Below, piece by piece: positions 1 to 11,574 of a stretch of 11,574 bases of DNA. How positions within the stretch are numbered: position 1 is the first letter of the stretch; each line of letters starts with the position of its first letter. The notes under the pieces were generated by a model that was not told the DNA's origin, did not search any database, and saw only the letters and a program-made list of their open reading frames with translations. Both the position numbers and the translations under genes were made by a program. Origin of the DNA: Prevotellaceae bacterium (lineage in GTDB: Bacteria > Bacteroidota > Bacteroidia > Bacteroidales > Bacteroidaceae); assembly GCA_021204165.1 (NCBI GenBank), contig JAJPZU010000112.1, positions 1 through 11,574 of the forward strand, written 5' to 3'.

Positions 1-10
1 AAGTTAGGGG

Positions 11-120
11 AGGTGGCGCGTAGCGACGGAGGAGTCTGTCGAAAACACCCACCAACTACACACGAGGAGTCTGCTGAAAACATCCCGCTAAATATACATG
101 AGTAGTCTGTAAATACACTC
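11..120. repeat. Left terminal repeat block. Nt 11-46 (aggtggcgcgtagcgacggaggagtctgtcgaaaac) form an inverted repeat with the last 37 nt of the window. Three direct copies of the core GAGGAGTCTG / GAGTAGTCTG lie at 29-38, 64-73 and 100-109, ~35 bp apart.
   Basis: Direct comparison of the window start with the reverse complement of the window end. The 36/37-nt match has a single 1-nt indel. The two subterminal core copies also have counterparts at the other end. Confidence 0.8.
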
Positions 121-226
121 ACTTAAACAAGAAGCATAATATTCCCACACGGAAACAGAGGGAAAAGAATCAGGGACACCATCACGATGCCCCTGAAAAA
201 CACAATGATTTCCGACAAGTCATACA

Positions 227-1681
227 CTATAAAGGCATGTTGCCATGCTTCTTCGGCGGATTGCTCTGATTCTTGTTACGAGTCATCTCCAGTGCCTGAA
301 TAAGACGTATGCGGGTGTCACACGGCTGTATGATTTCATCAATATAGCCAAGCTGTGCAGCCGGCATAGGATTGGCAAATTTACGTCGGTATTCCTCTAT
401 CGCCGCCGCGCGCTCTTCCGGCGAAGCCTTTCGGTAGAGAATGTTACATGCACCTTCCGCTCCCATCACGGCAATCTCCGCAGTCGGATAAGCTAAATTC
501 ACATCCGCACCGATACATTTGCTGTTCATCACAATGTATGCCCCGCCATAAGCCTTGCGCGTGATGAGTGTGAGCTTCGGTACTGTGGCCTCAGCAAAAG
601 CATACACAATCTTAGCCCCATGACGGATGATGCCGTTGTGCTCCTGATCTGTTCCCGGAAGGAAGCCCGGAACATCCTCCACCGCCACGAGCGGAATATT
701 AAAGCAGTCGCAGAAACGGATAAAGCGGGCAGCCTTGTCGCTTGCGTCAATATCGAGCGCACCGGCAAGGAAGTTTGGCTGATTTGCCACAAAACCCACT
801 GTGCGGCCGGCAAGACGTCCGAATCCTACTACAATGTTCTTGGCAAACTCGGTCATCACCTCGAAGAAATACTGCTGGTCGCATACCGGTTCTATGATAT
901 TGCGTATGTCATACGGCACATTAGGGTCTTCCGGAACCACATTGTCCAGTTCATGGCACACGCGGGTTATCTCATCTGTCACCGGATAGACAGGGGCATC
1001 TTCCATATTATTGGAAGGGATGAATCCAATCAGTTCGCGGATGGTCATCAGAGTCTCTTCCTCATCGCGGCAGACGAAATGGCTCACACCGCTCACACTG
1101 CTATGCGTCATGGCACCTCCGAGTGTCTCCTTGTCAACCGCTTCATTCGTCACGGCACGAACCACGTCCGGACCGGTGACAAACATCTGGCTCTGTCCCT
1201 TCACCATGAGAATGAAATCTGTCAGTGCAGGAGAATAGCACGACCCTCCGGCGCAAGGCCCGAGTATGGCAGAAATCTGCGGAATCACTCCGGATGCCAT
1301 CACGTTTTGCCGGAAGATGTGTGCAAAACCGGTCAGACTTTCCACTCCTTCCTGTATGCGTACACCTCCGGAATCGTTCAGACCGATAATCGGTGCTCCG
1401 TTTTTAAGGGCAAGTTCCTGCACTTTCACAATCTTCTGCGCGTTTGCCGCACTGAGAGAACCTCCCAATACCGCAAAATCAAAAGCATAGACGAAGACAA
1501 TGCGTCCGTCAATCTTGCCGTATCCGGAAATCACACCGTCGCCCTCCACACGCTTCTTGTCCATGCCGAAGTCGTTGCAACGATGCACCACATGCTTGTC
1601 CATTTCCACAAATGTTCCTTTGTCAAGAAGCAAATCTATGCGCTCACGTGCTGTGAGTCTCTGTATCTTATTGTCATTCAT
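227..1681 (-). CDS. Acyl-CoA carboxylase carboxyltransferase subunit, the propionyl-CoA carboxylase beta / methylmalonyl-CoA decarboxylase alpha family.
   Basis: 484-aa ORF whose N-terminus (LTARERIDLLLDKGTFVE...GLNDSGGVRIQEG) and overall layout are typical of the CoA-carboxyltransferase family. It overlaps the upstream carrier-protein gene by 8 bp, which implies translational coupling. Confidence 0.9.
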   Translation of the reverse strand: MNDNKIQRLTARERIDLLLDKGTFVEMDKHVVHRCNDFGMDKKRVEGDGVISGYGKIDGRIVFVYAFDFAVLGGSLSAANAQKIVKVQELALKNGAPIIGLNDSGGVRIQEGVESLTGFAHIFRQNVMASGVIPQISAILGPCAGGSCYSPALTDFILMVKGQSQMFVTGPDVVRAVTNEAVDKETLGGAMTHSSVSGVSHFVCRDEEETLMTIRELIGFIPSNNMEDAPVYPVTDEITRVCHELDNVVPEDPNVPYDIRNIIEPVCDQQYFFEVMTEFAKNIVVGFGRLAGRTVGFVANQPNFLAGALDIDASDKAARFIRFCDCFNIPLVAVEDVPGFLPGTDQEHNGIIRHGAKIVYAFAEATVPKLTLITRKAYGGAYIVMNSKCIGADVNLAYPTAEIAVMGAEGACNILYRKASPEERAAAIEEYRRKFANPMPAAQLGYIDEIIQPCDTRIRLIQALEMTRNKNQSNPPKKHGNMPL

Positions 1682-2192
1682 TGTTTTCGTTCAGTTTTAA
1701 TGTTATCAATGTCTGTCCGACCTTCACACTGTCGCCTTCTGCCACAAGCACAGAAAGCACCTCGCAATCAGCCGCGACCTTATAGTTCGACTGCATCTTC
1801 ATAGCCTCCATAGTCAGTACCGTGTCTCCGGCCTTCAGCTTGTCGCCCTGCTTGCAATACGCTTTTACTATCTTGCACGGCATCGGCGCCGTCACCTGAT
1901 CGCTCTGCACGGCATCCGTCTTTTTCCGCATACGCATGTATTTTGCCTGCGAGTCCAACATGTCAATCTGGTAAGTCGAATAGTTGACATTCACGCGGTA
2001 ATGCTTTCCTGCATCGCTCTTCACCAGCTCTGCCTTGTACGAGTTTCCATTGTGAATAATCGAACATGTTCCGTTTTGCAACATGGCCACATCCACATCA
2101 TAAACTTGTCCGTCTATATCAATCTTCACGTTGTTTCCGTCTTTGCTCAACAGCGTGACATCTACAATCTTGTTTCCAACCTGAATATCCAT
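1674..2192 (-). CDS. Biotin carboxyl carrier protein, i.e. a biotin/lipoyl-attachment domain protein.
   Basis: 172-aa ORF. The C-terminal biotinyl domain carries the canonical EAMKM motif (LTMEAMKMQ), with the biotinyl-Lys codon at ~1797-1799. The gene sits between the biotin carboxylase and carboxyltransferase genes. Confidence 0.9.
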   Translation of the reverse strand: MDIQVGNKIVDVTLLSKDGNNVKIDIDGQVYDVDVAMLQNGTCSIIHNGNSYKAELVKSDAGKHYRVNVNYSTYQIDMLDSQAKYMRMRKKTDAVQSDQVTAPMPCKIVKAYCKQGDKLKAGDTVLTMEAMKMQSNYKVAADCEVLSVLVAEGDSVKVGQTLITLKLNENNE

Positions 2193-2308
2193 TATAATCG
2201 TTTTTTAGTTTAAGTTCTGCCTGCACATCGTTCATGCGGCTTCAAAATTCCACGAAACCGGACACCATGCGGGCGGCAGGCAGATGGTTGTGCAATCTTA
2301 TCGTACCA

Positions 2309-3835
2309 TTATACTCTCAACACACCCTTCTGCAATCCGAATGTTCTCCAGCGATTGATGGCGGACTGTCCCTGTTTGCATTCAGCCGCCCCACCGGTAT
2401 TTTCCTCCAGATTCATAAGGTAGTCTATGTAGGCGGCAATCACCGCCATCTCTTCGCTCTCGTTCTTGAATCCCGGACGCGGACGCAGACGCTCCGCATT
2501 GCGCTCTATAAAATAGGTGTTGTAGTTTCCTTCACGGAAATCAGGCACATCAATGATGCGGCGCAAGTAGCGTATGTTCGTAGTCAGACCGACAATCTTA
2601 TATTCATACAGCACTCTCCTCATGCGCTCAATGGCATACTGTCTCTCCGTAGCCCAAACGATAAGCTTTCCAATCATCGGATCGTAATGTACGGGAATCT
2701 CATAGCCCTCATATACATAGCTGTCGATTCGGATACCAATGCCGTGAGGCTCTGTGAGCTGAACAATCGTTCCCGGCGAAGGCATGAAGTTATGCTCCGT
2801 ATCCTCCGCACAGATGCGGCACTCTATGGCATGTCCTCTTTGGCGGATATCCTCCTGACGGTAGCCCAGCGGTTGTCCGTCAGCAATAAGAATCTGCTGT
2901 TTCACAAGATCGACGCCGACAACTTCTTCCGTGATAGGATGCTCCACCTGAAGCCGGGTGTTCATTTCAAGGAAATAGAAATGATGGTGCTTATCCACAA
3001 GAAACTCAATGGTGCCGGCACCGATGTAGCCCACCGCTTTTGCCGCAGCCACCGCCTTCTCGCCCATTTCGCGGCGAAGAGTGTCATCAATAAACGGCGA
3101 CGGACTTTCTTCTACTATTTTCTGGTGACGACGCTGCACAGAACATTCGCGGTCGTAAAGATGGATGACATTGCCATGCTTGTCGCCAAGTATCTGAAAC
3201 TCTATGTGGTGAGGCTCCTCGACAAACTTTTCGATATAGACTGTATCATCGCCAAACGAAGCCATCGCCTCGTTCTTTGCCGCATTGTACATCTCTATCA
3301 CATCTTCTTCGCGTTCAATAAGTCTCATGCCTTTTCCGCCGCCACCCATAGAAGCCTTCAGCATCACGGGGAAGCCAATCTTTCGGCACACCTCCAAGGC
3401 TTCCTCGCCACTGCTCAATTGCTCCTGAGTTCCGGGCACAACGGGCACTCCCGCCTTTATCATCTGTATGCGGGCGGAAATCTTGTCGCCCATCAATTCC
3501 ATGGTTTCCGGCTTTGGACCGATGAAGATGATGCCTTCAGCTTCACAACGACGCGCAAACTCGGAATTTTCGGAAAGGAAACCGTATCCCGGGTGAATGG
3601 CATCCACTTTGTGCTTCTTTGCCGCCTCGATAATGTGGTCGATATTCAGGTAGCTGTCTGCCGACGACGCACCGCCGATACACTCTGCTTCGTTTGCAAA
3701 AACGACATGGCGCGACAGACGGTCGGCAGTGCTATAGACAGCCACAGAACGTATGCCCATTTCATAACAAGCACGCATCACCCGAATCGCAATCTCACCG
3801 CGATTGGCAACCAATACTTTTCTTATCATAAACAT
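2309..3835 (-). CDS. accC: Biotin carboxylase subunit of an acetyl/propionyl-CoA carboxylase.
   Basis: 508-aa ORF with the N-terminus KVLVANRGEIAIRVMRA typical of biotin carboxylases. It also has an ATP-grasp glycine-rich loop (MLKASMGGGGKGMR) and a conserved C-terminal biotin carboxylase domain. Confidence 0.93.
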   Translation of the reverse strand: MFMIRKVLVANRGEIAIRVMRACYEMGIRSVAVYSTADRLSRHVVFANEAECIGGASSADSYLNIDHIIEAAKKHKVDAIHPGYGFLSENSEFARRCEAEGIIFIGPKPETMELMGDKISARIQMIKAGVPVVPGTQEQLSSGEEALEVCRKIGFPVMLKASMGGGGKGMRLIEREEDVIEMYNAAKNEAMASFGDDTVYIEKFVEEPHHIEFQILGDKHGNVIHLYDRECSVQRRHQKIVEESPSPFIDDTLRREMGEKAVAAAKAVGYIGAGTIEFLVDKHHHFYFLEMNTRLQVEHPITEEVVGVDLVKQQILIADGQPLGYRQEDIRQRGHAIECRICAEDTEHNFMPSPGTIVQLTEPHGIGIRIDSYVYEGYEIPVHYDPMIGKLIVWATERQYAIERMRRVLYEYKIVGLTTNIRYLRRIIDVPDFREGNYNTYFIERNAERLRPRPGFKNESEEMAVIAAYIDYLMNLEENTGGAAECKQGQSAINRWRTFGLQKGVLRV

Positions 3836-4424
3836 CTATATTTGGTTATACACTTTCTTCCATCTCAAAACAAAATATAATACGATATCAGAAAGCACAC
3901 TCCGAGAACCGCATGACAAAGCGGACAACTCACGAAAGAATACATATCCCAAGAATACATGAATACACAAAAAACACCGATATTCCATCCCGGAATCTCA
4001 GCAAAACAGTATTCTCAGTATTTTTCCGGCAGCTCTTATTCCCGAGAGCGGCATCTGAACATCGGCATCGGCAGGTCTTCTGACTTCTCCATTGGCAGCA
4101 CGGCCTTCCCAACCACAATTATTTACAGCCTCACGGCAATAACAAAGGTCAGTGGCACAACATGATGATGTGTTGCCATAAAAAACAGGAGTTACAGCTA
4201 CGGGTATAGTTACAGACTCACACTGTATTCCCTCTTAGTCTGTCCGTCTTTCCTGAGTGCTTCTTCCTGAAGTCCGCCATTCCCGAAATCAGATTAGGCA
4301 AATTCCAGTCTCAACAAGCCTCAAATGAAGAGGACAAGAACCAAATGCGCGGCAAAAGTACACATAAAATCCGAATCCATGCACTTTTTACCATATTTTT
4401 ACTCCAAACATTCTATGAAACTCT

Positions 4425-4512
4425 TGTGTTTTCTCCGGTATTTCCCCTGTGCTTTTCCGGTATTTTCCCGGTGTTCTTCCTGTATTTTTCCTGTATTTTC
4501 CCGGTTTTTTCC
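4425..4512. repeat. Array of phased short direct repeats with a GTATTT(T)CC(C) core, about four copies at ~11 or ~22-bp spacing, in the flotillin-accC spacer.
   Basis: ccggtatttcccc / ccggtattttcccgg / ctgtatttttcc / tgtattttcccgg read directly from the sequence. The spurious plus-strand ORF 4345..5163 translates these as a repeated IFPVF peptide. Confidence 0.6.
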
Positions 4513-4559
4513 ATAAAAAAGCATGGGACATTCCGCTTCTTTCGGAAATGCCCCATGCA
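4513..4559 (-). terminator. Putative Rho-independent terminator downstream of the flotillin gene.
   Basis: On the minus strand, GCATGGGGCATTTCCG-aaag-aagCGGAATGTCCCATGC forms an imperfect ~14-bp stem, followed by TTTTTTAT. It lies immediately 3' of the flotillin stop at 4579. Confidence 0.55.
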
Positions 4560-4578
4560 CCGTTTCTCTTTAGTTTAT

Positions 4579-5955
4579 TCAGTCTTCTACTTCTTCCGCA
4601 TCCACAGCAGGCTCTTCTTTTTTCTTCGCCAGATACTCCGGCAAATTAAGCCCCGCCATATCGAAAAGTTCGTTAAGCGGCGGAACAGACTTCATCAGTC
4701 CGGACACGAAACCGGCTGTAGAGCCTTTTCCGTCTGCACCACCGGCACCATTGTCCCAAACAGTCACATGGTCAATGTTGATACCCTTGACAGCCTCAAC
4801 CTGAGTCTTGACAAGCTCAGGAAGCTTTTCGAGCAGCAACAGCATGTATGCCTTGTTGGCATCTCCTCCGGCAGCCTGAACCATCTTGTCATAACCGGCA
4901 GCCTGCTTCGTCAGCACTTCATACAAACCTTTTGCTTCTGCCTCCATCTTGGCATAAATGGCATCTGCTTCACCCTTTGCATTGACACGCACGCGCTCTG
5001 CTTCCGCCTCCGCTTCGATGATAAGTCGTCTCTTCTCAATCTCCTGCGGAACGAGTACGTTGGCTGTTTCCGTAGAGCGTTCACGTTCTGCACGCGCTTC
5101 CTCAGCCTCGCGTTCTGCCGCGTATGCTTCCTGCAATGCCTTTGCCTGCTGTACTTTTTCTGAGGCTGTGGCTTTACGCTGTGCCTCCGCTTCCTTCTCA
5201 CGGCGATAAGCCTCGGATGCAGCAATGGCAACCTTCGCTTCGTTCTCACCCTTTACGGCTTCCGCATTGGCTTCGGCTGTACGTATGCGGGTTTCTCTCA
5301 CCGCTTCCGCCTTACCGATTTCACCGACTTTATCTTGCTCTGCCACTCTCACTTTTGCCTCATTTATCGCTTTGGCAGCAGCTTCACGTCCGAGAGCCTC
5401 TATATATCCGCTCTCATCTTTTATATCGGTCACGTTCACATTTATCAGACGAAGACCAATCTTTTTCAGTTCCACTTCTACATTGGCAGAAATGCTCTCA
5501 AGAAACTTGTCACGGTCGTTGTTCAGTTCCTCAATACTCATCGTGGCAATTACCAGACGCAACTGTCCGAAAAGAATATCACGCGCCAGTTCCTGTATCT
5601 GTGCAGCACTAAGTCCGAGCAAACGTTCCGCAGCTGCATTCATGCAATCGTGGTCTGTAGATATACCCACAGTGAAGCGGCTTGGCACATCCACACGGAT
5701 GTTCTGTTTGCTGAGCGCATTTGTCAGATTCGCATCAATACTGATTGGTGTAAGGCTAAGATAAGCATAGTCTTCGATTATAGGCCATACGAAAGCACCG
5801 CCGCCATGCACGCAACGTGCCGACGTTTTGCTGCTTTTACTCCCATAAATCACCAAAATTTTGTCCGAAGGACACCGTCTGTAACGATTCACAATGGAAA
5901 CGAACAGCGCAATAGCCACTACAGCGGCAATTACAATAAGATACATAGATTCCAT
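4579..5955 (-). CDS. SPFH / band-7 flotillin-like protein of the YqiK/FloT type.
   Basis: 458-aa ORF with an N-terminal transmembrane helix and an SPFH domain (…ILVIYGSKSS…RVDVPSRFTVGIS…). A long Ala/Glu/Arg/Lys-rich coiled-coil region follows, then a C-terminal acidic tail. This architecture is typical of bacterial flotillins. Confidence 0.88.
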   Translation of the reverse strand: MESMYLIVIAAVVAIALFVSIVNRYRRCPSDKILVIYGSKSSKTSARCVHGGGAFVWPIIEDYAYLSLTPISIDANLTNALSKQNIRVDVPSRFTVGISTDHDCMNAAAERLLGLSAAQIQELARDILFGQLRLVIATMSIEELNNDRDKFLESISANVEVELKKIGLRLINVNVTDIKDESGYIEALGREAAAKAINEAKVRVAEQDKVGEIGKAEAVRETRIRTAEANAEAVKGENEAKVAIAASEAYRREKEAEAQRKATASEKVQQAKALQEAYAAEREAEEARAERERSTETANVLVPQEIEKRRLIIEAEAEAERVRVNAKGEADAIYAKMEAEAKGLYEVLTKQAAGYDKMVQAAGGDANKAYMLLLLEKLPELVKTQVEAVKGINIDHVTVWDNGAGGADGKGSTAGFVSGLMKSVPPLNELFDMAGLNLPEYLAKKKEEPAVDAEEVED

Positions 5956-6044
5956 AATTAATTATTTTAATATCCAACTTTTCAAGATTACAAGACCGGT
6001 TGCCGCATGAAGTGCCCCCTGTCTGAAGAAAGTTTCAAATTCAT

Positions 6045-6137
6045 CTCTCTTGGTCAAAAATTCTCATCCCTTTGGGTCAAAATTTTCATTCCTTTAGTCA
6101 AAAAAATCTCATCCCTTTGGGTCAAAGATTCTCTACC
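6045..6137. repeat. Four tandem ~23-bp direct repeats of tttgggtcaaaaattctcatccc variants. Each contains the dyad TTTG-GGT-CAAA. They sit between the NfeD-like stop and the flotillin start.
   Basis: tctcttggtcaaaaattctcatccc | tttgggtcaaaattttcattcc | tttagtcaaaaaaatctcatccc | tttgggtcaaagattctctacc. The last copy overlaps the stop codon of the upstream gene at 6122-6124. Confidence 0.75.
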
Positions 6138-6700
6138 ACCAGCATTTCTCCGCCGACAACATCAGTAATCCGCACCTTGCGCCCTGTGGTTATCGCCTCA
6201 CCCTCTGTAACCGCATCCAGTTCATGCACGGAACCGTTCACACTTATCTGCACTTTTCCTCTGCCGCTCTTCTTCTCCGGAATGCGCAGATAGACATCTG
6301 CCACACGTCCCTTGCAATATTCAATGCGGAAGGCGCCGTTTGCCTCCAGCTTCTTGGTCTGCTTGTAGATAAAGAAGAACATCCACACAAAAAACAAGCC
6401 TACGGCTGCTGCCACGAGTGCCAGCAACACAGCATTACCCATCAGCGAATGCAGACAGACACCTGCCCAGCCGAAGCCCACAAAGAAATTGACAAGGCTC
6501 CTTATAGAGAACAACGACAGTCCTCCTCCCAAATCCATTGTGTCTCCGGCATCAAAATCGACATCTATGTCGCTTGAATCCATTCCGAACAACGTAAGCA
6601 GAAGCTGTATTACAAACACAGCTGACCCGACAAGTGCACAAACCCAGAACACTTGCTGCATAGTTTCAAGTCCACTGAACCAAATTGAAAAACTCTCCAT
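6122..6700 (-). CDS. NfeD/YqiJ-like membrane protein, the usual operon partner of a flotillin.
   Basis: 192-aa ORF with 3-4 N-terminal hydrophobic helices and a C-terminal soluble ~60-aa beta-rich OB-like tail (GRVADVYLRIPEKKSGRGKVQISVNGSVHELDAVTEGEAITTGRKVRITDV). It lies directly upstream of the flotillin gene on the same strand. Confidence 0.7.
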   Translation of the reverse strand: MESFSIWFSGLETMQQVFWVCALVGSAVFVIQLLLTLFGMDSSDIDVDFDAGDTMDLGGGLSLFSIRSLVNFFVGFGWAGVCLHSLMGNAVLLALVAAAVGLFFVWMFFFIYKQTKKLEANGAFRIEYCKGRVADVYLRIPEKKSGRGKVQISVNGSVHELDAVTEGEAITTGRKVRITDVVGGEMLVVENL

Positions 6701-6899
6701 ATTCTAATTAGTTTTACGGTTATATAAATCATATTCTGAAATGATATGTCCACCATCTATTTTACAAAGAGGGAACATCCTTAAAAAAAATAACATTACC
6801 AGACTGCATTTTTCATTAAACACTCTCCTTCTCACTGCATTTTCATAATTCATAAAAGACTCCGATTAATTATTTTAATGATAAATGCCAATCTTATAA

Positions 6900-7580
6900 T
6901 TACCATACATATTGCGATGGATATTTTACTTGCATGAAAGTGAAGCCATGCCCCATTACGCTATGGTGAGAAGTCGTCTGTGCTGTCATATTTGATACAA
7001 TACTGCCAAACACCTGCATATTTGCTCTTGCGTCACCGCGTGAAGCAAGAATGGGTGCATCAGGGACATCGTAATCGCGCCATGCAAATAAGCAGACCTT
7101 TTGGGGATATGTCAAGAGATTTACAGCTGTTGTAGATTCTTGAATCAAAACTTCTATCGATTTAAGCATTTGCTGTCTGGCTTTTGCCCGTTTCCCTTCC
7201 GGGTATTTTCCCGTATTAGGCTCAACATATTTTTCCTCATAACAACACAAGTCACAGAATACAACTTTTTCATGTACCATTCCTGTCTCTGTCATTAATA
7301 AATCACATCGGTCTTTAATATTGGCAGTAGTGCCTGCAAATTGTTCGATATACTTTTCAAAACGAACCACAGCAATTTCCTTGCCATTATTATTCACCTT
7401 CAGAACTTCTTTATTGCATTCATTACGGTAAGCCCTTTCAGGCAATTGCTGACATCGTATGCAACTCTTGGAGTCGGTTTCTGAGAAAGGTTCGCGTATT
7501 CTGTAGAGAGGCACTTCTACTTCTTGTGGATTTATGCCATAATGGAGCGGGAATGCCTTTTTAAGAAAAGATTCTATCAT
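6900..7580 (-). CDS. Hypothetical Cys-rich protein that is translationally coupled to the upstream ABC-type ATPase. It is the candidate effector or partner of a two-gene defence-like cassette.
   Basis: 226-aa ORF. Its ATG overlaps the ATPase stop in an ATGA arrangement (7577-7580). It contains CxxC (CIRC) and HxxxxxCDLCC motifs. Composition is AT-rich like the ATPase gene. I recognise no family with confidence; a DUF4276/RloB-type partner is possible but unverified. Confidence 0.6.
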   Translation of the reverse strand: MIESFLKKAFPLHYGINPQEVEVPLYRIREPFSETDSKSCIRCQQLPERAYRNECNKEVLKVNNNGKEIAVVRFEKYIEQFAGTTANIKDRCDLLMTETGMVHEKVVFCDLCCYEEKYVEPNTGKYPEGKRAKARQQMLKSIEVLIQESTTAVNLLTYPQKVCLFAWRDYDVPDAPILASRGDARANMQVFGSIVSNMTAQTTSHHSVMGHGFTFMQVKYPSQYVW

Positions 7581-8737
7581 ACGTCAAGATTTACAAATTC
7601 ATTATAAATGTGACTCATCAACTCTGAGAGGTCGTAAGTATCTACAATCCACCGTCCGCGTTCATTTTGGACAAGCAAATCTTGTATCTCTCCTTCATAT
7701 ATTCGATAAACAGCCGTGTTAGTCCTGCTCAATTGGGCACGTACTGCATTTGTTTGGTTTAGTAAAACATTCAAGTAGTTAAGAATATACGGACTATGGG
7801 TCGCAAGCATCATATTAATTTCTCGATTTTCATCCGCATGTGTTGCCGACAGCACAATTTCTTCTATGAGTTTGCACTGTGCATCAGGGAACAGACTTAA
7901 CTCAGGTTCTTCAATATGGATATATACTTGTTTCTTCAAATCGCTGGGTTCTGCGACAGCCCGAAACTTGTTCAATCTTTCCATATCATACAGATAGTTC
8001 AGGACAGAGCGCTTGAATGCGTCCTTAAATGAAAAGCCATTTGCGCTGGCATAGTTCTTTACAATCAAAGCGACCGATGCTGACGTTTGAATGCCGGATG
8101 AAGCTTCTCGTAAGTCGATTGGCTCATGACGGCTGTCATTTGGAATGACGGTGTAGCGTGTAGGCTTACCTTTGGGGTGGGTTATCTGAAGCTTCATGCC
8201 TATATAGTCCAACGGTATCTCTTTGTCGTTTGCCGATGCTCTGACAAAATCATTGTTTGTTTCATGAAAATAAAATCCCAAGGTTGCACCTGTGTTTTGG
8301 GATGCCTTTTGCGCCCATGTCGGAATGATGTTTCGGTTTTCAGAGATATAGGACACTTTGTTGAACACCAAATGGTCAGAAGATATAATGGGAAGTCTGC
8401 CTAATTTCTTGTTTTCCATCAAGATGGTGTATTCCGTTTCATCATCCATGACTACACTATACCTAATTACACTTGACGAGTCAAGCATTTTATACATTCC
8501 CGTTTCTTTCATCATCGAATCGAAGCGCATCCTGAAAGGAGAGCTTGTTATTTTTGAATGCTTCAAATAAGAACGGATGTTTGCCATTTTGTACAGATAG
8601 CGCATCATGCTTATCAGCTTCATCAGTGTGCTTTTACCACTTGCGGATTCACCAATCAACACAGTGAATGGCAGAAGGCCAAGGTTCTCAATGTGCTTTA
8701 GCGGACCAATATTTTTAATTGTTATAAATTCCTTCAT
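7577..8737 (-). CDS. ABC-type ATPase of the AAA_21/AAA_15 (SMC-like) family with no fused transporter domain. The longest ORF extends to 8815, but the start at MKEFITIKNIG (8737) is more plausible.
   Basis: Walker A GESASGKST at ~8627-8653. An ABC-signature-like SSGIQ motif. A Walker B / D-loop VYIHIEEPELSLFP. An H-loop LATHSPYIL. There is no transmembrane region. GC is low compared with neighbouring genes. Confidence 0.85.
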   Translation of the reverse strand: MKEFITIKNIGPLKHIENLGLLPFTVLIGESASGKSTLMKLISMMRYLYKMANIRSYLKHSKITSSPFRMRFDSMMKETGMYKMLDSSSVIRYSVVMDDETEYTILMENKKLGRLPIISSDHLVFNKVSYISENRNIIPTWAQKASQNTGATLGFYFHETNNDFVRASANDKEIPLDYIGMKLQITHPKGKPTRYTVIPNDSRHEPIDLREASSGIQTSASVALIVKNYASANGFSFKDAFKRSVLNYLYDMERLNKFRAVAEPSDLKKQVYIHIEEPELSLFPDAQCKLIEEIVLSATHADENREINMMLATHSPYILNYLNVLLNQTNAVRAQLSRTNTAVYRIYEGEIQDLLVQNERGRWIVDTYDLSELMSHIYNEFVNLDV

Positions 8738-8956
8738 AATAAAGTTTTGTTTTTCAAACAATCTGATAAAGTATGATTTACCCAATAAAGATACTAATTT
8801 GTACTTCAACAGCAAAAAAAATCCTGTATTGTGACGCTAAAAACGTGAATTTATTACAGAAATGGCACTTTGTCATGTCAAATCAGAAGGTGAAGTGTCA
8901 AAACAGGAGATACAATCCAAACTTATTGTTGCATGAACATCTGGGGCCAGAGCCGC

Positions 8957-9478
8957 CTAATCCTCCAGCCAGTCCTCCGACAAACTGAAGTCCTTGTCCG
9001 CAAACAAGTCCGCCAGCCCGGAAATCTGCTTCAGCCTCAACAGCTCATCCTTGTCCATGCCGATATTGCGCATAATCCACGCATCCGACATGCCCGCAGA
9101 CGTAAGCTCCGACACGATGTGGCTCATCAGCTCTATCGTGTGCGTACCCCTCGCCCTGTTATGACGTATGGTCGAAGCCATTCTGCACGAAATATCCTTG
9201 TCTATCACCGACACGGGAAGCATCCCCTTCTCCCTGTCATAAATTCGTTTCGATGTCTTCATCACCAGATAGCGGTGGAATCCATCTACAATCTCATACT
9301 TGTCCTCGTCCTTCAAGTAATAGCACACGCAAGGCATGGTGTACCCGTCCTCCCATATCGACAGTTCCAACAGCTTCATCTCCGGAGGAGCCACCATGTT
9401 GGGGTTATAATTGTTCGCCACCACTTTCTCGATAGGCACTGCTATCACATTATATACCGGACTCTTAAAATTTTCCAT
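8957..9478 (-). CDS. ibrB: ParB-like nuclease domain protein (IbrB-like).
   Basis: 173-aa ORF with a ParB/Srx-type motif IVDGFHRY (codons ~9272-9286). It overlaps the upstream PAPS-reductase-like gene by 14 bp, which implies translational coupling. Confidence 0.7.
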   Translation of the reverse strand: MENFKSPVYNVIAVPIEKVVANNYNPNMVAPPEMKLLELSIWEDGYTMPCVCYYLKDEDKYEIVDGFHRYLVMKTSKRIYDREKGMLPVSVIDKDISCRMASTIRHNRARGTHTIELMSHIVSELTSAGMSDAWIMRNIGMDKDELLRLKQISGLADLFADKDFSLSEDWLED

Positions 9479-10763
9479 ATTCCAATGCTTTATATTTTCT
9501 CATCACACTTTCTCGTCTGCTCTTCTCATTCTTGGTCAGGGTAAAGCCCATGTACTTACACACATGGTCGTTTCTCAGTATGCAGATGCAGACACGCTTG
9601 AATGTCGGAATCTCCCGAAACTCCGGAATGTCTATGTCGTCAACGTACTCCATCATGACCGGTCTTTTGTTAGTGCGGTATGCCGTGGTCGTCCCAACCG
9701 TAAACTTCACCCCTGCCGCACGCAATTTTTCAATGGTCTCATCGCTCAGACATCCGCCTTTCGTCCTCCAGAATCTCATGCTCACACCTATCTTGTCCAG
9801 ATAATTGCGGCACACCTTCTCCGGCAACGTGTCCAGCAGAAAGTACATGTACTTTTTCCAAGAAAATCCGTGAGGACATTTTATCGACTTCCATCCCATA
9901 GCCGTCGTATTCCCGTAGATGCCGGAAAAATTGACACCATTGACACGGCTGACCATCCGCCCCCACATGTCGGGGTCTATCGCCCGATAGACACTCAGCG
10001 TAGGTATGGCATGAGAAATGAACGGACTTGCCACCCGCTGCCGCCCAATCGGAATGCCCGCACGCGAATAAAGGTCATAAAGCGGATTATAAGTCCATCC
10101 GAATTTTCCGTTTGCCGTCCAGATGTCAGATGTTTTCCAGTCATAAAGCGGATAAGCGTTATACACATGTGCAGCAAGCTTATGTGTCCATTTGTAATGC
10201 GAAAGCCGCCGGTAGTTCTTGGCATTGTGTATGGCCGTCCACCGGTTAAAACTCTCCTGCGTCCTTATGCCTACAAGACAACATATACGTTCACATTTCT
10301 TCCGGTTGCGCAGCCAAGGGGCGAAAAGATACTGGAAGTCATAGTCCCACAAGGCATCAGTGAAGAAATTGAAATCGGCTGCCGTATAAGCCCCCTCAGG
10401 CATTTCCCTCACCCATATATCCTTCTCCGATTCTCCCCAAGGTCTCCAATACGACTGGTGCATGGATGTACAGGTCATGACTTTGAAGGGCACGCAACAA
10501 TGGTACACCTCCAGAATGTCGCGATTCTCCGACAGGGTACGGCGCACATACTCCGTGGTCTGCCGGTACTGCACCTCGTAGTCCATGTGGAACACACCCA
10601 GCTTACGTCCCGGAGCATACCTCCGTATATAGTCTATGCACAGATTCAACAACACTCCGCTGTCCTTGCCACCCGAAAACGAGACATACACATAATCGAA
10701 ATAATCGAATATGATCTTCAGCCTCCTTTGCACTGCTTCATAAACATCAAGTTGCCTAATCAT
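9465..10763 (-). CDS. ibrA: Phosphoadenosine-phosphosulfate reductase family PP-loop protein. It is DndC/IbrA-like, with a PAPS_reduct domain and a C-terminal extension.
   Basis: 432-aa ORF with the PP-loop SFSGGKDS near the N-terminus (~10659-10682). Its size and C-terminal region fit the IbrA/DUF3440-type proteins that pair with ParB-like IbrB. Confidence 0.8.
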   Translation of the reverse strand: MIRQLDVYEAVQRRLKIIFDYFDYVYVSFSGGKDSGVLLNLCIDYIRRYAPGRKLGVFHMDYEVQYRQTTEYVRRTLSENRDILEVYHCCVPFKVMTCTSMHQSYWRPWGESEKDIWVREMPEGAYTAADFNFFTDALWDYDFQYLFAPWLRNRKKCERICCLVGIRTQESFNRWTAIHNAKNYRRLSHYKWTHKLAAHVYNAYPLYDWKTSDIWTANGKFGWTYNPLYDLYSRAGIPIGRQRVASPFISHAIPTLSVYRAIDPDMWGRMVSRVNGVNFSGIYGNTTAMGWKSIKCPHGFSWKKYMYFLLDTLPEKVCRNYLDKIGVSMRFWRTKGGCLSDETIEKLRAAGVKFTVGTTTAYRTNKRPVMMEYVDDIDIPEFREIPTFKRVCICILRNDHVCKYMGFTLTKNEKSRRESVMRKYKALEYGKF

Positions 10764-11164
10764 TCCTTACGTCCTCCGGCATATACCATCTTGTCATAAT
10801 TCTTCCATTCCCTATGTGTCCTGAAGCCGTTGCGTGCAAAGTCAGCCACATGACGCTTGTGTACGACTGCGGTCAGCACAGTCCTGCTCACCGACTCCGC
10901 CACCACCCTGTCGAGCAGAGCATCAATGAGCAAAGAATCGTCGCCCTTGATATAATAATTGTCAATACAGGCTTCACGCTCTTTCTCCTTTACCGGAATG
11001 AATCCGATTACCTCCTTTTTCTCTATGGCCACATACCATTTGTGATGACGGGAGGTCTTGAAGGGATAATTGTTGTTGAGCCTCAACACTGCCGCATTCA
11101 TCACCAGCGGTGCCACCAGCTCATAAAGGCGGGAAGATGTGCCTTCTAAAATCTCAATATTCAT
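10760..11164 (-). CDS. Small protein, possibly with a GNAT-like acetyltransferase fold. It is the first gene of the coupled three-gene operon.
   Basis: 134-aa ORF whose stop overlaps the downstream PAPS-reductase-like gene start by 4 bp. Its beta-alpha pattern is loosely GNAT-like (WYVAIEKKEVIGFI…YYIKGDDSLLIDALLDRV…FARNGF). The fold assignment is tentative. Confidence 0.5.
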   Translation of the reverse strand: MNIEILEGTSSRLYELVAPLVMNAAVLRLNNNYPFKTSRHHKWYVAIEKKEVIGFIPVKEKEREACIDNYYIKGDDSLLIDALLDRVVAESVSRTVLTAVVHKRHVADFARNGFRTHREWKNYDKMVYAGGRKE

Positions 11165-11312
11165 AAAAACAGTCTTTTTGATTCTTGCCTATCCCGACTT
11201 CCGAATCATGAGAGTCTCGGTCTTATAAAGAAGATACATCAGTTGCCACATCCGTAATCTATAAACAGCAGACATCATGAACCATCAAAGTCAAGTAATG
11301 CAATAAACTATG

Positions 11313-11320
11313 CAAAAGTA
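11313..11320 (-). promoter_or_regulatory. Possible Bacteroidetes-type -7 promoter element (TAnnTTTG, here TACTTTTG on the minus strand) upstream of the three-gene operon.
   Basis: Plus-strand caaaagta reverse-complements to TACTTTTG, a match to the Bacteroides sigma-ABfr -7 consensus. It lies ~150 bp upstream of the ATG at 11164. No clear -33 TTTG was found, so this is weak. Confidence 0.25.
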
Positions 11321-11434
11321 CGACAAATACCTTTTTTATTCTACCCGATGTCATATTTTTTACAAGAAGAATACTTAGATACTGTTTTTTAGAAGCCGTT
11401 TGTTTAAATGAATGTATTCAACAATTTTAAGCTT

Positions 11435-11574
11435 GTCTATTTAACGGACTCCTCATGTGTATTTAGTGGAATGTTTTTATATTTGGTGGGGTGTTCTCGG
11501 CAGACTCCTCATGTGTGAATTGTATGTGTTAGCAGACGTTTTCGACAGACTCCTCCGTCGCTACCGCGCCACCT
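11435..11574. repeat. Right terminal repeat block, the inverted partner of 11-120. The terminal 37 nt (11538-11574) are the reverse complement of 11-46 apart from one extra G. On the complementary strand, GAGGAGTCTG / GAGGAGTCCG copies begin 20, 65 and 121 nt from the terminus, so the spacing is 45 and 56 nt versus 35 and 36 nt on the left.
   Basis: Reverse complement of 11435-11574 aligned by eye to 11-140. The gactcctc motifs are visible at ~11447, ~11501 and ~11546 on the plus strand. Confidence 0.8.

Follow-up and report, generated by a model that had tools for sequence, protein, structure and literature searches.

Why should ten genes that all lie on one strand, with no recombinase among them, be enclosed between inverted repeats at the two ends of a DNA sequence? 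This is the question raised by the 11,574-nt stretch analyzed here (the window), contig JAJPZU010000112.1 of the Prevotellaceae bacterium assembly GCA_021204165.1. The initial annotation offered three options, namely a non-autonomous cargo element mobilized in trans, a chromosomal segment trapped between two inverted copies of a repeat and so able to invert, or a contig broken off at both ends in a multicopy repeat; for the carboxylase genes it leaned toward the second or third. We consider it highly probable, at roughly 85%, that the window is a contig of a Prevotellaceae chromosome cut in two palindromic copies of a transposable element of the miniature inverted-repeat type (a MITE), and that it is not a mobile element.

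The inverted repeats reported at both ends proved to be genuine. Positions 20–46 and 11538–11564 are the left and right arms of a perfect inverted repeat with 27 of 27 nucleotides complementary, much more than chance would give, and by eye the match extends to 11–46 against 11538–11574 (36 of 37 positions, with one indel), the right arm reaching the last base of the window. The 18-mer GAGGAGTCTGYYGARAAC occurs four times, two per end and mirrored; dinucleotide-preserving shuffles contained a mean of 0.04 matches, and none of 200 contained four. About three degenerate units beginning GAGGAGTCTG are present per end, with spacing that is unlike between the ends, and at the left end TRF reported 2.3 copies of a GAGGAGTCTG-type unit with a period of 36 at 29–109. 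Rfam returned no family at the window ends, solely spurious miRNA-type hairpin matches, a tRNA search of the window found none, and the terminal 215–230 nt gave no meaningful match to the plasmids of PLSDB. Two other identities for the ends were set aside: protein-coding sequence running off the contig edge was rejected, as the two ends do not share conserved reading frames (by eye), and a CRISPR array or tyrosine-integrase arm sites were dropped once full palindromic copies with terminal inverted repeats (TIRs) and target-site duplications (TSDs) had been found.

The window is the entire contig, since the cluster of its exact 134-aa protein (LUD00_05640, from the NCBI metagenome-assembled genome, or MAG, named Prevotellaceae bacterium) lists 11574 bp as the longest contig. 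To be delimited by repeats therefore means merely that the contig stops within repeats. Five Logan contigs from four sequencing runs, 99.8–100% identical to the window, also all stop within the terminal zones, at window positions 33, 11464, 11513, 11528, and 11545, indicating that several assemblies fail at those sequences.

Copies of the repeat in other metagenomes revealed what it is. A loose pattern built on the arm gave 21 matches in metagenome contigs, 15 of which contained the core only and were treated as chance (the three that were read lie in unrelated GC-rich DNA). Six contigs of one Desmarest’s spiny pocket mouse gut co-assembly (L103, L104, L106, L107, L109, and L112) carry arms 92–100% identical to those of the window. 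The arms stand as facing pairs inside the longer contigs L104 (11196–11383), L107 (2281–2471), L109, and L112; in L103 and L106, MITE copies are cut by a contig end, and L106 (2259 nt), like the window, has both of its ends in MITE copies. At least nine copies, whether full, partial, or truncated by a contig end, are present on these six contigs, which do not necessarily derive from one genome, in addition to the two halves in the window and one copy on L092, a MAG contig from a relative. The L092 copy comprises two diverged arm copies, inverted and facing, about 125 nt apart and about 220 nt after a ParB-like gene (7330–7541; 74% complementary).

An alignment of the copies (alignment A1) gave the order of the element: an outer tip GAARCTGTTTTAAA, 25–40 nt of variable sequence, a 45-nt arm ending ...TGTTTTCGACAGACTCCTCCGTCGCTACCGCGCCACCTCCTCTAAC, a small perfect palindrome that reads CTCCTCTAA-G-TTAGAGGAG in the full copies, a center of about 75 nt, and then the mirror image. 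Both copies that retain the two tips, in L104 and L107, measure exactly 247 nt from tip to tip. Their 14-nt TIRs (GAARCTGTTTTAAA; GAAACTGTTTTAAA / TTTAAAACAGTTTC) show 0–2 mismatches at both tips, and these two copies, the only complete ones, are flanked by perfect 3-bp TSDs, TGA in L104 and TTA in L107; an empty site was not seen. Five further single tips are all TNA-flanked (TCA in L103, TCA and TTA in L106, TAA in L109, and TTA at window positions 11389–11391). The region 2235–2500 of L107 is predicted to fold into a single long hairpin (−79.7 kcal/mol, z = −15.8). No open-reading frame (ORF) in the ORF lists (≥ 100–120 aa) is confined to a MITE copy, and one 254-aa ORF of L104 ends just within the left arm. 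The full copies matched no Rfam family, and no description of the arm sequence was found in Rfam or the literature. The pocket-mouse copies sit between housekeeping genes, including tsaD, cinA, rsmE, and the genes for methionine aminopeptidase and glutamate synthase. With a short TIR, a TNA duplication of 3 bp, a small size, no coding capacity, and dispersed copies, the 247-nt repeat has the sequence features that define a MITE.

Each end of the window holds one half of such an element. The left half-copy (1–135), a right arm cut by the contig start, was detected by nhmmer with the arm profile at 2–49 and aligns to the right arms of L104 and L107; its conserved 45-nt arm (~2–49) is followed by degenerate 36-nt GAGGAGTCTG units at 29–109, and the small palindrome has its axis 2 nt from the window start. 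The right half-copy (11392–11574), a left arm cut by the contig end, was detected by nhmmer at 11574–11534. Its outer TIR, GAAGCCGTTTGTTTAAA, begins at 11392 and is preceded by TTA (11389–11391), its conserved arm spans 11534–11574, and the window stops at ...CCGCGCCACCT, one base beyond the stop of L103 (...CCGCGCCACC). With the right end of the window aligned as a left arm and the left end as a right arm, only about 100 nt of center is missing between them. The tip of the right MITE, together with its TNA flank (11389–11408), faces the gene block, and the genes therefore lie outside that MITE. The last of the three options, a contig ending at a multicopy repeat, is thus the one borne out by the data: the sequence is a whole contig, its ends are MITE half-copies, and other contigs break in the same element.

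Arm conservation was high across metagenomes. The 45-nt arms of the window (2–49 and 11534–11574) are 95–100% identical to those of L104, L107, and L112 from the unrelated pocket-mouse co-assembly, in contrast to the closest relative of the window, which is only about 80% identical to it in coding DNA. This suggests either a recent spread of the MITE or a constraint on the hairpin. A TNA target duplication suggests an IS5-type DDE transposase that works in trans, and, judging from the TSD and the TIR tip only, such an enzyme would mobilize this MITE. No transposase was found among the approximately ten largest ORFs tested per pocket-mouse locus, and the 1.6 Mb of fetched loci contained no pair of these TIRs 0.1–4 kb apart besides the two 247-nt copies. 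The putative autonomous partner of the MITE would be an IS5-family transposase gene bounded by GARRCTGTTTTAAA TIRs. A two-site end pattern (GAGGAGTCTGNNGANAAC, 10–40 nt, GAGGAGTCTG) had no match in GTDB representative genomes and JGI metagenome contigs, and the single-site pattern had merely four isolated chance matches in viral contigs.

A second dispersed repeat of about 0.7–0.9 kb was also seen in these contigs (L104 965–1837 and 11573–12280; L109 74–945; L112 3119–3904; L103 3–411; L092 1–188 versus 7770–7957). Its copies are 75–83% identical and contain no ORF of at least 120 aa wholly within them, and it adjoins DUF5128 beta-propeller genes in L104 and L109 and MITE copies in L104, L109, and L112. 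Contig L092 carries direct repeats at its own two ends (188 nt, 90% identical to each other).

The initial annotation had itself proposed a synteny comparison with related strains. Searching with homologs of the 134-aa protein led to L090, a 133-kb contig (JAAGKN010000124.1 of GCA_011262095.1) in which the gene order is the same: the genes for the 134-aa protein, the PAPS-reductase/DUF3440 protein, the ParB-like protein, the 192-aa protein, and flotillin, then the cobalamin riboswitch, accC, and the genes for the biotin carboxyl carrier protein (BCCP) and the carboxyltransferase. For eight genes, the proteins are 82–98% identical and the DNA 80–82% identical to the window. Nucleotide homology runs from 229 to 11365 of the window and halts short of both MITE halves, and the arm motif is absent from L090. 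In L090 the block has MatE and DUF5106 genes as its neighbors at one edge; at the other edge are a hairpin that resembles an intrinsic terminator and genes for PepSY-like and response-regulator proteins. The relative thus keeps the gene order without the flanking repeats, a result that, by the criterion of the initial annotation itself, refutes the first option, the non-autonomous cargo element; the right MITE tip, which faces the genes, also contradicts it.

In the sample of the window (SRR15221345), the DUF5106 ortholog and its 884-aa neighbor lie on a separate contig, L114, and the NCBI copy of the DUF5106-ortholog protein comes from a 7.2-kb contig of a ‘Prevotellaceae bacterium’ MAG. A separate contig for this ortholog fits a chromosome fragmented at repeats. 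L114 and L115, which carry the ortholog in two samples, end at the identical base (position 1) where the homologous L092 sequence continues, suggesting a fixed branch of the assembly graph, possibly another repeat boundary, in the genome of the window. The ortholog of the PepSY-like neighbor was found only in an unrelated sample, and an 89%-identical relative (P0002) is represented by a 1.2-kb contig with just 121 nt of upstream sequence. Around flotillin homologs, the 80 GTDB loci have nothing but the 192-aa-gene/flotillin pair in common with the window, at about 75% nucleotide identity and with no arms; they are too distant for a synteny test, and the informative relatives are L090 and L092.

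Taken together, these observations can be accounted for by a simple sequence of events. The unique part of the window (~136–11391) would be a syntenic chromosomal block plus an inserted ATPase cassette, accompanied on each side by its own copy of a palindromic MITE that is non-coding and dispersed. A short-read assembler would have stalled in these multicopy palindromes and ended the contig inside each copy, so that the contig would begin with a right arm from one copy and finish with a left arm from another. Because the arms of the MITE are inverted repeats of each other, the contig would then appear to be bounded by terminal inverted repeats. This is in line with short-read assembly simulations in another member of the Bacteroidales, Porphyromonas gingivalis, in which insertion sequence (IS) and MITE copies were the main cause of gaps and two thirds of the gaps fell at such copies (PMC5771137).

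Several points weigh against this account. We infer that the two halves are two different MITE copies of one genome; that the MITE is multicopy in the genome of the window, and how the two ends link to neighboring DNA, are likewise inferred. The outer tip of the left half-copy (~125–135) is degenerate, with no clear TIR or TNA. Both half-copies are longer than the 247-nt canonical form, carrying extra 36–56-nt GAGGAGTCTG units that are missing from the canonical copies, and these extra tandem units are why the window ends resembled multi-site transposon ends. L114 extends only 95 nt upstream of the DUF5106 gene and meets no MITE arm in that stretch, no cognate transposase was present in the 1.6 Mb of fetched loci, and the geometry of the ends would also allow both halves to be a single MITE closing an 11.7-kb circle.

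That last arrangement, in which a circle of about 11.7 kb, either plasmid-like or an excised element, was left unclosed through the palindrome, draws on the fact that the right end, the missing center of about 100 nt, and the left end rebuild arm, center, and arm in the correct orientation. We nevertheless give it very little credence, as the window has no replication, partition-complete, or mobilization genes, the block in L090 is chromosomal and flanked by other genes, the ortholog of the flanking DUF5106 gene is on another contig of the same sample, and the flanks of the two tips differ, with TTA at 11389–11391 and no TNA at the degenerate left tip. A cargo transposon of 11.5 kb, non-autonomous and with TIRs and subterminal repeats recognized by a transposase in trans, would likewise be consistent with part of the evidence: a perfect 27-nt terminal inverted repeat, GAGGAGTCTG units repeated at both ends with asymmetric spacing, and no transposase inside. 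Here, however, the arms prove to be inner halves of MITEs of 247 nt with their own TIRs and TSDs, hence not the outermost ends, and the outer TIR and TNA flank of the right MITE (11389–11408) are inside the window and face the genes. L090 has the gene block in a chromosomal context without the repeats, the copy in L092 sits elsewhere, right behind the ParB-like gene, and the extra GAGGAGTCTG units are missing from canonical copies, all of which makes such a transposon highly improbable.

A true inversion (or deletion) of the segment between two repeat copies, with mixed orientations breaking the assembly, is very unlikely. The layout that it supposes, with repeat copies on both sides and arms identical at 36 of 37 positions, probably holds under a chromosomal contig cut in two MITE copies as well; palindromic copies give both direct and inverted homology, and assembly graphs do break at invertible segments. 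The window, however, encodes no recombinase, the identical stretch is merely about 37 nt, the ten genes form self-contained operons on which inversion would have no obvious regulatory effect, and L103 and L106 break in the same element without such pairing. Of the second option of the initial annotation, the physical layout between two repeat copies therefore probably stands, and no inversion was shown. The inverted repeats at both contig ends, and a small palindrome whose axis is 2 nt from the left end, would also suit a linear replicon or a genome of phage-like type that carries true inverted terminal repeats or hairpin telomeres. We regard this as extremely improbable: genes for replication, a terminal protein, a telomere resolvase, or structural proteins are lacking, the genes present serve housekeeping metabolism and are syntenic with a chromosome, and the same palindrome is found inside long contigs between housekeeping genes. 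Also quite unlikely is joint action of the MITE pair, either bounding a composite unit or recombining with each other, by which the 11.2-kb block of carboxylase, flotillin, and IbrAB-like genes could be moved, inverted, or excised; more modestly, given its highly similar arms in unrelated gut metagenomes, the family may be both undescribed and currently active, or its hairpin may have a conserved function.

The gene content of the window agrees with what the initial annotation had described, ten credible ORFs, all on the minus strand and confirmed by independent gene calls on the Logan contigs, and no recombinase. Seven of the ten proteins match Pfam or NCBIfam (E ≤ 0.01), with the scores for ParB_N and for NCBIfam FloT under the curated cut-offs; the 134-aa, 226-aa, and 192-aa proteins have no match in either database. 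None of the minus-strand proteins matched a transposase, integrase, or recombinase family in Pfam, NCBIfam, or PADLOC, and the ten largest plus-strand ORFs had no Pfam match. A carboxylase operon occupies the left part of the window, with an acyl-CoA carboxyltransferase subunit (227–1681, 484 aa; Pfam Carboxyl_trans, 4.7e-185; best NCBIfam match the mmdA subfamily, under the cut-off; 95% identical to its L090 ortholog), a BCCP (1674–2192, 172 aa; Pfam Biotin_lipoyl; 93% identical to its L090 ortholog), and the biotin carboxylase AccC (2309–3835, 508 aa; Pfam CPSase_L_D2, Biotin_carb_N, and Biotin_carb_C; NCBIfam accC, 654.6 bits, above the cut-off). Upstream of this accC-BCCP-carboxyltransferase operon is a cobalamin riboswitch aptamer on the same strand (4053–4296; Rfam RF00174, 71.6 bits against a gathering threshold of 31.5, E 2e-16), which is in the same place in L090 (14725–14951, 71.3 bits). 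Its position suggests that a biotin-dependent acyl-CoA carboxylase with an mmdA/pccB-like carboxyltransferase may be under B12-dependent control.

Farther along are a flotillin/SPFH-domain protein (4579–5955, 458 aa; Pfam Band_7 and Flot; 98% identical to its L090 ortholog) and its partner, a 192-aa membrane protein (6122–6700) that is ‘NfeD-like’ by position only. In 77 of 80 GTDB relatives, the flotillin gene has the 192-aa gene as its upstream partner. Two minisatellites lie nearby, an 11/22-nt array that separates flotillin from the riboswitch (4425–4512; 7.6 or 4 copies) and a 23-nt array (6041–6133; 4.1 copies) between the 192-aa gene and flotillin. Both sit in the sole gaps of the alignment between the window and L090 (4402–4495 and 5970–6119) and therefore vary between species. 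At the right is a three-gene operon headed by the hypothetical 134-aa protein (10760–11164; no family match), followed by an IbrA-like PAPS-reductase and DUF3440 protein (9465–10763, 432 aa; Pfam DUF3440, 1.1e-87, and PAPS_reduct, 2.7e-12) and an IbrB-like, ParB_N-like protein (8957–9478, 173 aa; Pfam ParB_N, 1.4e-3, under the cut-off; 95% identical to its L090 ortholog). The 134-aa protein has 249 homologs, and its gene precedes the PAPS-reductase gene in all five other contigs that were examined (L090, L091, L092, L119, and the Logan contigs of the window).

Between the ParB-like and 192-aa genes lies the AT-rich cassette (6814–8950), two minus-strand genes encoding a 412-aa ATPase (7577–8815) and a 226-aa protein (6900–7580). 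Its GC content is 0.36–0.43, compared with 0.47–0.53 in the rest of the window, and it is replaced in L090 by about 155 nt; a check of the cassette borders for repeats found none. Relative to L090, the cassette is, by alignment, an insertion or deletion. The ATPase belongs to the AAA_21/AAA_15 family, and its best PADLOC match is PDC-M29A, a candidate defense protein (2.1e-26, nearly full length), while its 226-aa partner matched nothing in PADLOC, Pfam, or NCBIfam. The proposal that the cassette was separately acquired agrees with its absence from L090 and its lower GC content, and ‘separately acquired’ and ‘defence-like’ both seem reasonable descriptions of it. The defense label is weak for the PAPS-reductase/ParB-like pair, which has only weak, partial PADLOC matches (BrxP and DndC); these presumably reflect the shared PAPS-reductase domain, and the pair belongs to the conserved block. 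In L092, the intergenic region between the ParB-like and 192-aa genes, the spot of the cassette in the window, holds the MITE copy, so this region may be an insertion hot spot.

The element can be compared with several known systems. IS5-family insertion sequences and MITEs (IS1031/IS427-type) generate a 3-bp TNA target duplication, with eukaryotic Tourist/PIF-Harbinger elements as an analogue. The present MITE is like them in duplicating TNA at its target (TGA, TTA, TCA, and TAA) and in its short TIRs, and differs in that the 1.6 Mb of fetched loci contained no transposase gene with these TIRs. REPINs (REP doublets), ERIC, and the Correia elements of Neisseria are palindromic intergenic hairpin repeats, and the MITE has in common with these two conserved inverted arms, a variable spacer, a strong predicted hairpin, and dispersed intergenic copies. 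It differs from REPINs in possessing distinct outer TIRs along with TSDs, and from REP doublets in its larger size. The window ends also recall those of Tn7, Mu, and IS21 in their terminal inverted repeat and about three motifs per end at unequal spacing, but unlike in those elements there is no transposase, the repeats are tandem duplications in MITE halves, and the enclosed genes are conserved, free of repeats, in a relative.

Closer to this lineage are the MITEPgRS, MITE464, and BrickBuilt elements of P. gingivalis (Klein et al. 2015, PMC4596501), which, like the present MITE, are small, non-coding, and intergenic, with short TIRs; they are also multicopy, as the present MITE probably is. 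At its TIR tip, GAGACTGTTTTAAA, the L109 copy has GAGACTGTT in common with the published MITEPgRS TIR, GAGACTGTTGCA (PMC4596501); past the TIR tip there is no sequence similarity to the P. gingivalis MITEs, and the lineage here is Prevotellaceae from animal guts. The window copies contain internal tandem 36-nt units where BrickBuilt has a 23-nt minisatellite, and the present MITE has a long internal palindrome, highly conserved 45-nt arms, and consistent 3-bp TNA duplications, whereas the TSDs of BrickBuilt are reported as variable (PMC4596501). The two minisatellites of the window (4425–4512 and 6041–6133), for their part, recall the 23-nt BrickBuilt repeats (PMC4596501).

These results call for caution, as terminal inverted repeats on metagenomic contigs are often read as the mark of a complete linear genome or a transposon. 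Scans that flag units bounded by inverted repeats and lacking a transposase will recurrently catch contigs of this kind, of which L106 is a second example. The MITE family itself, 247 nt long with a TNA duplication and a long internal hairpin and present in gut Prevotellaceae and related Bacteroidales, is a potential marker both of assembly breaks and of recent transposition.

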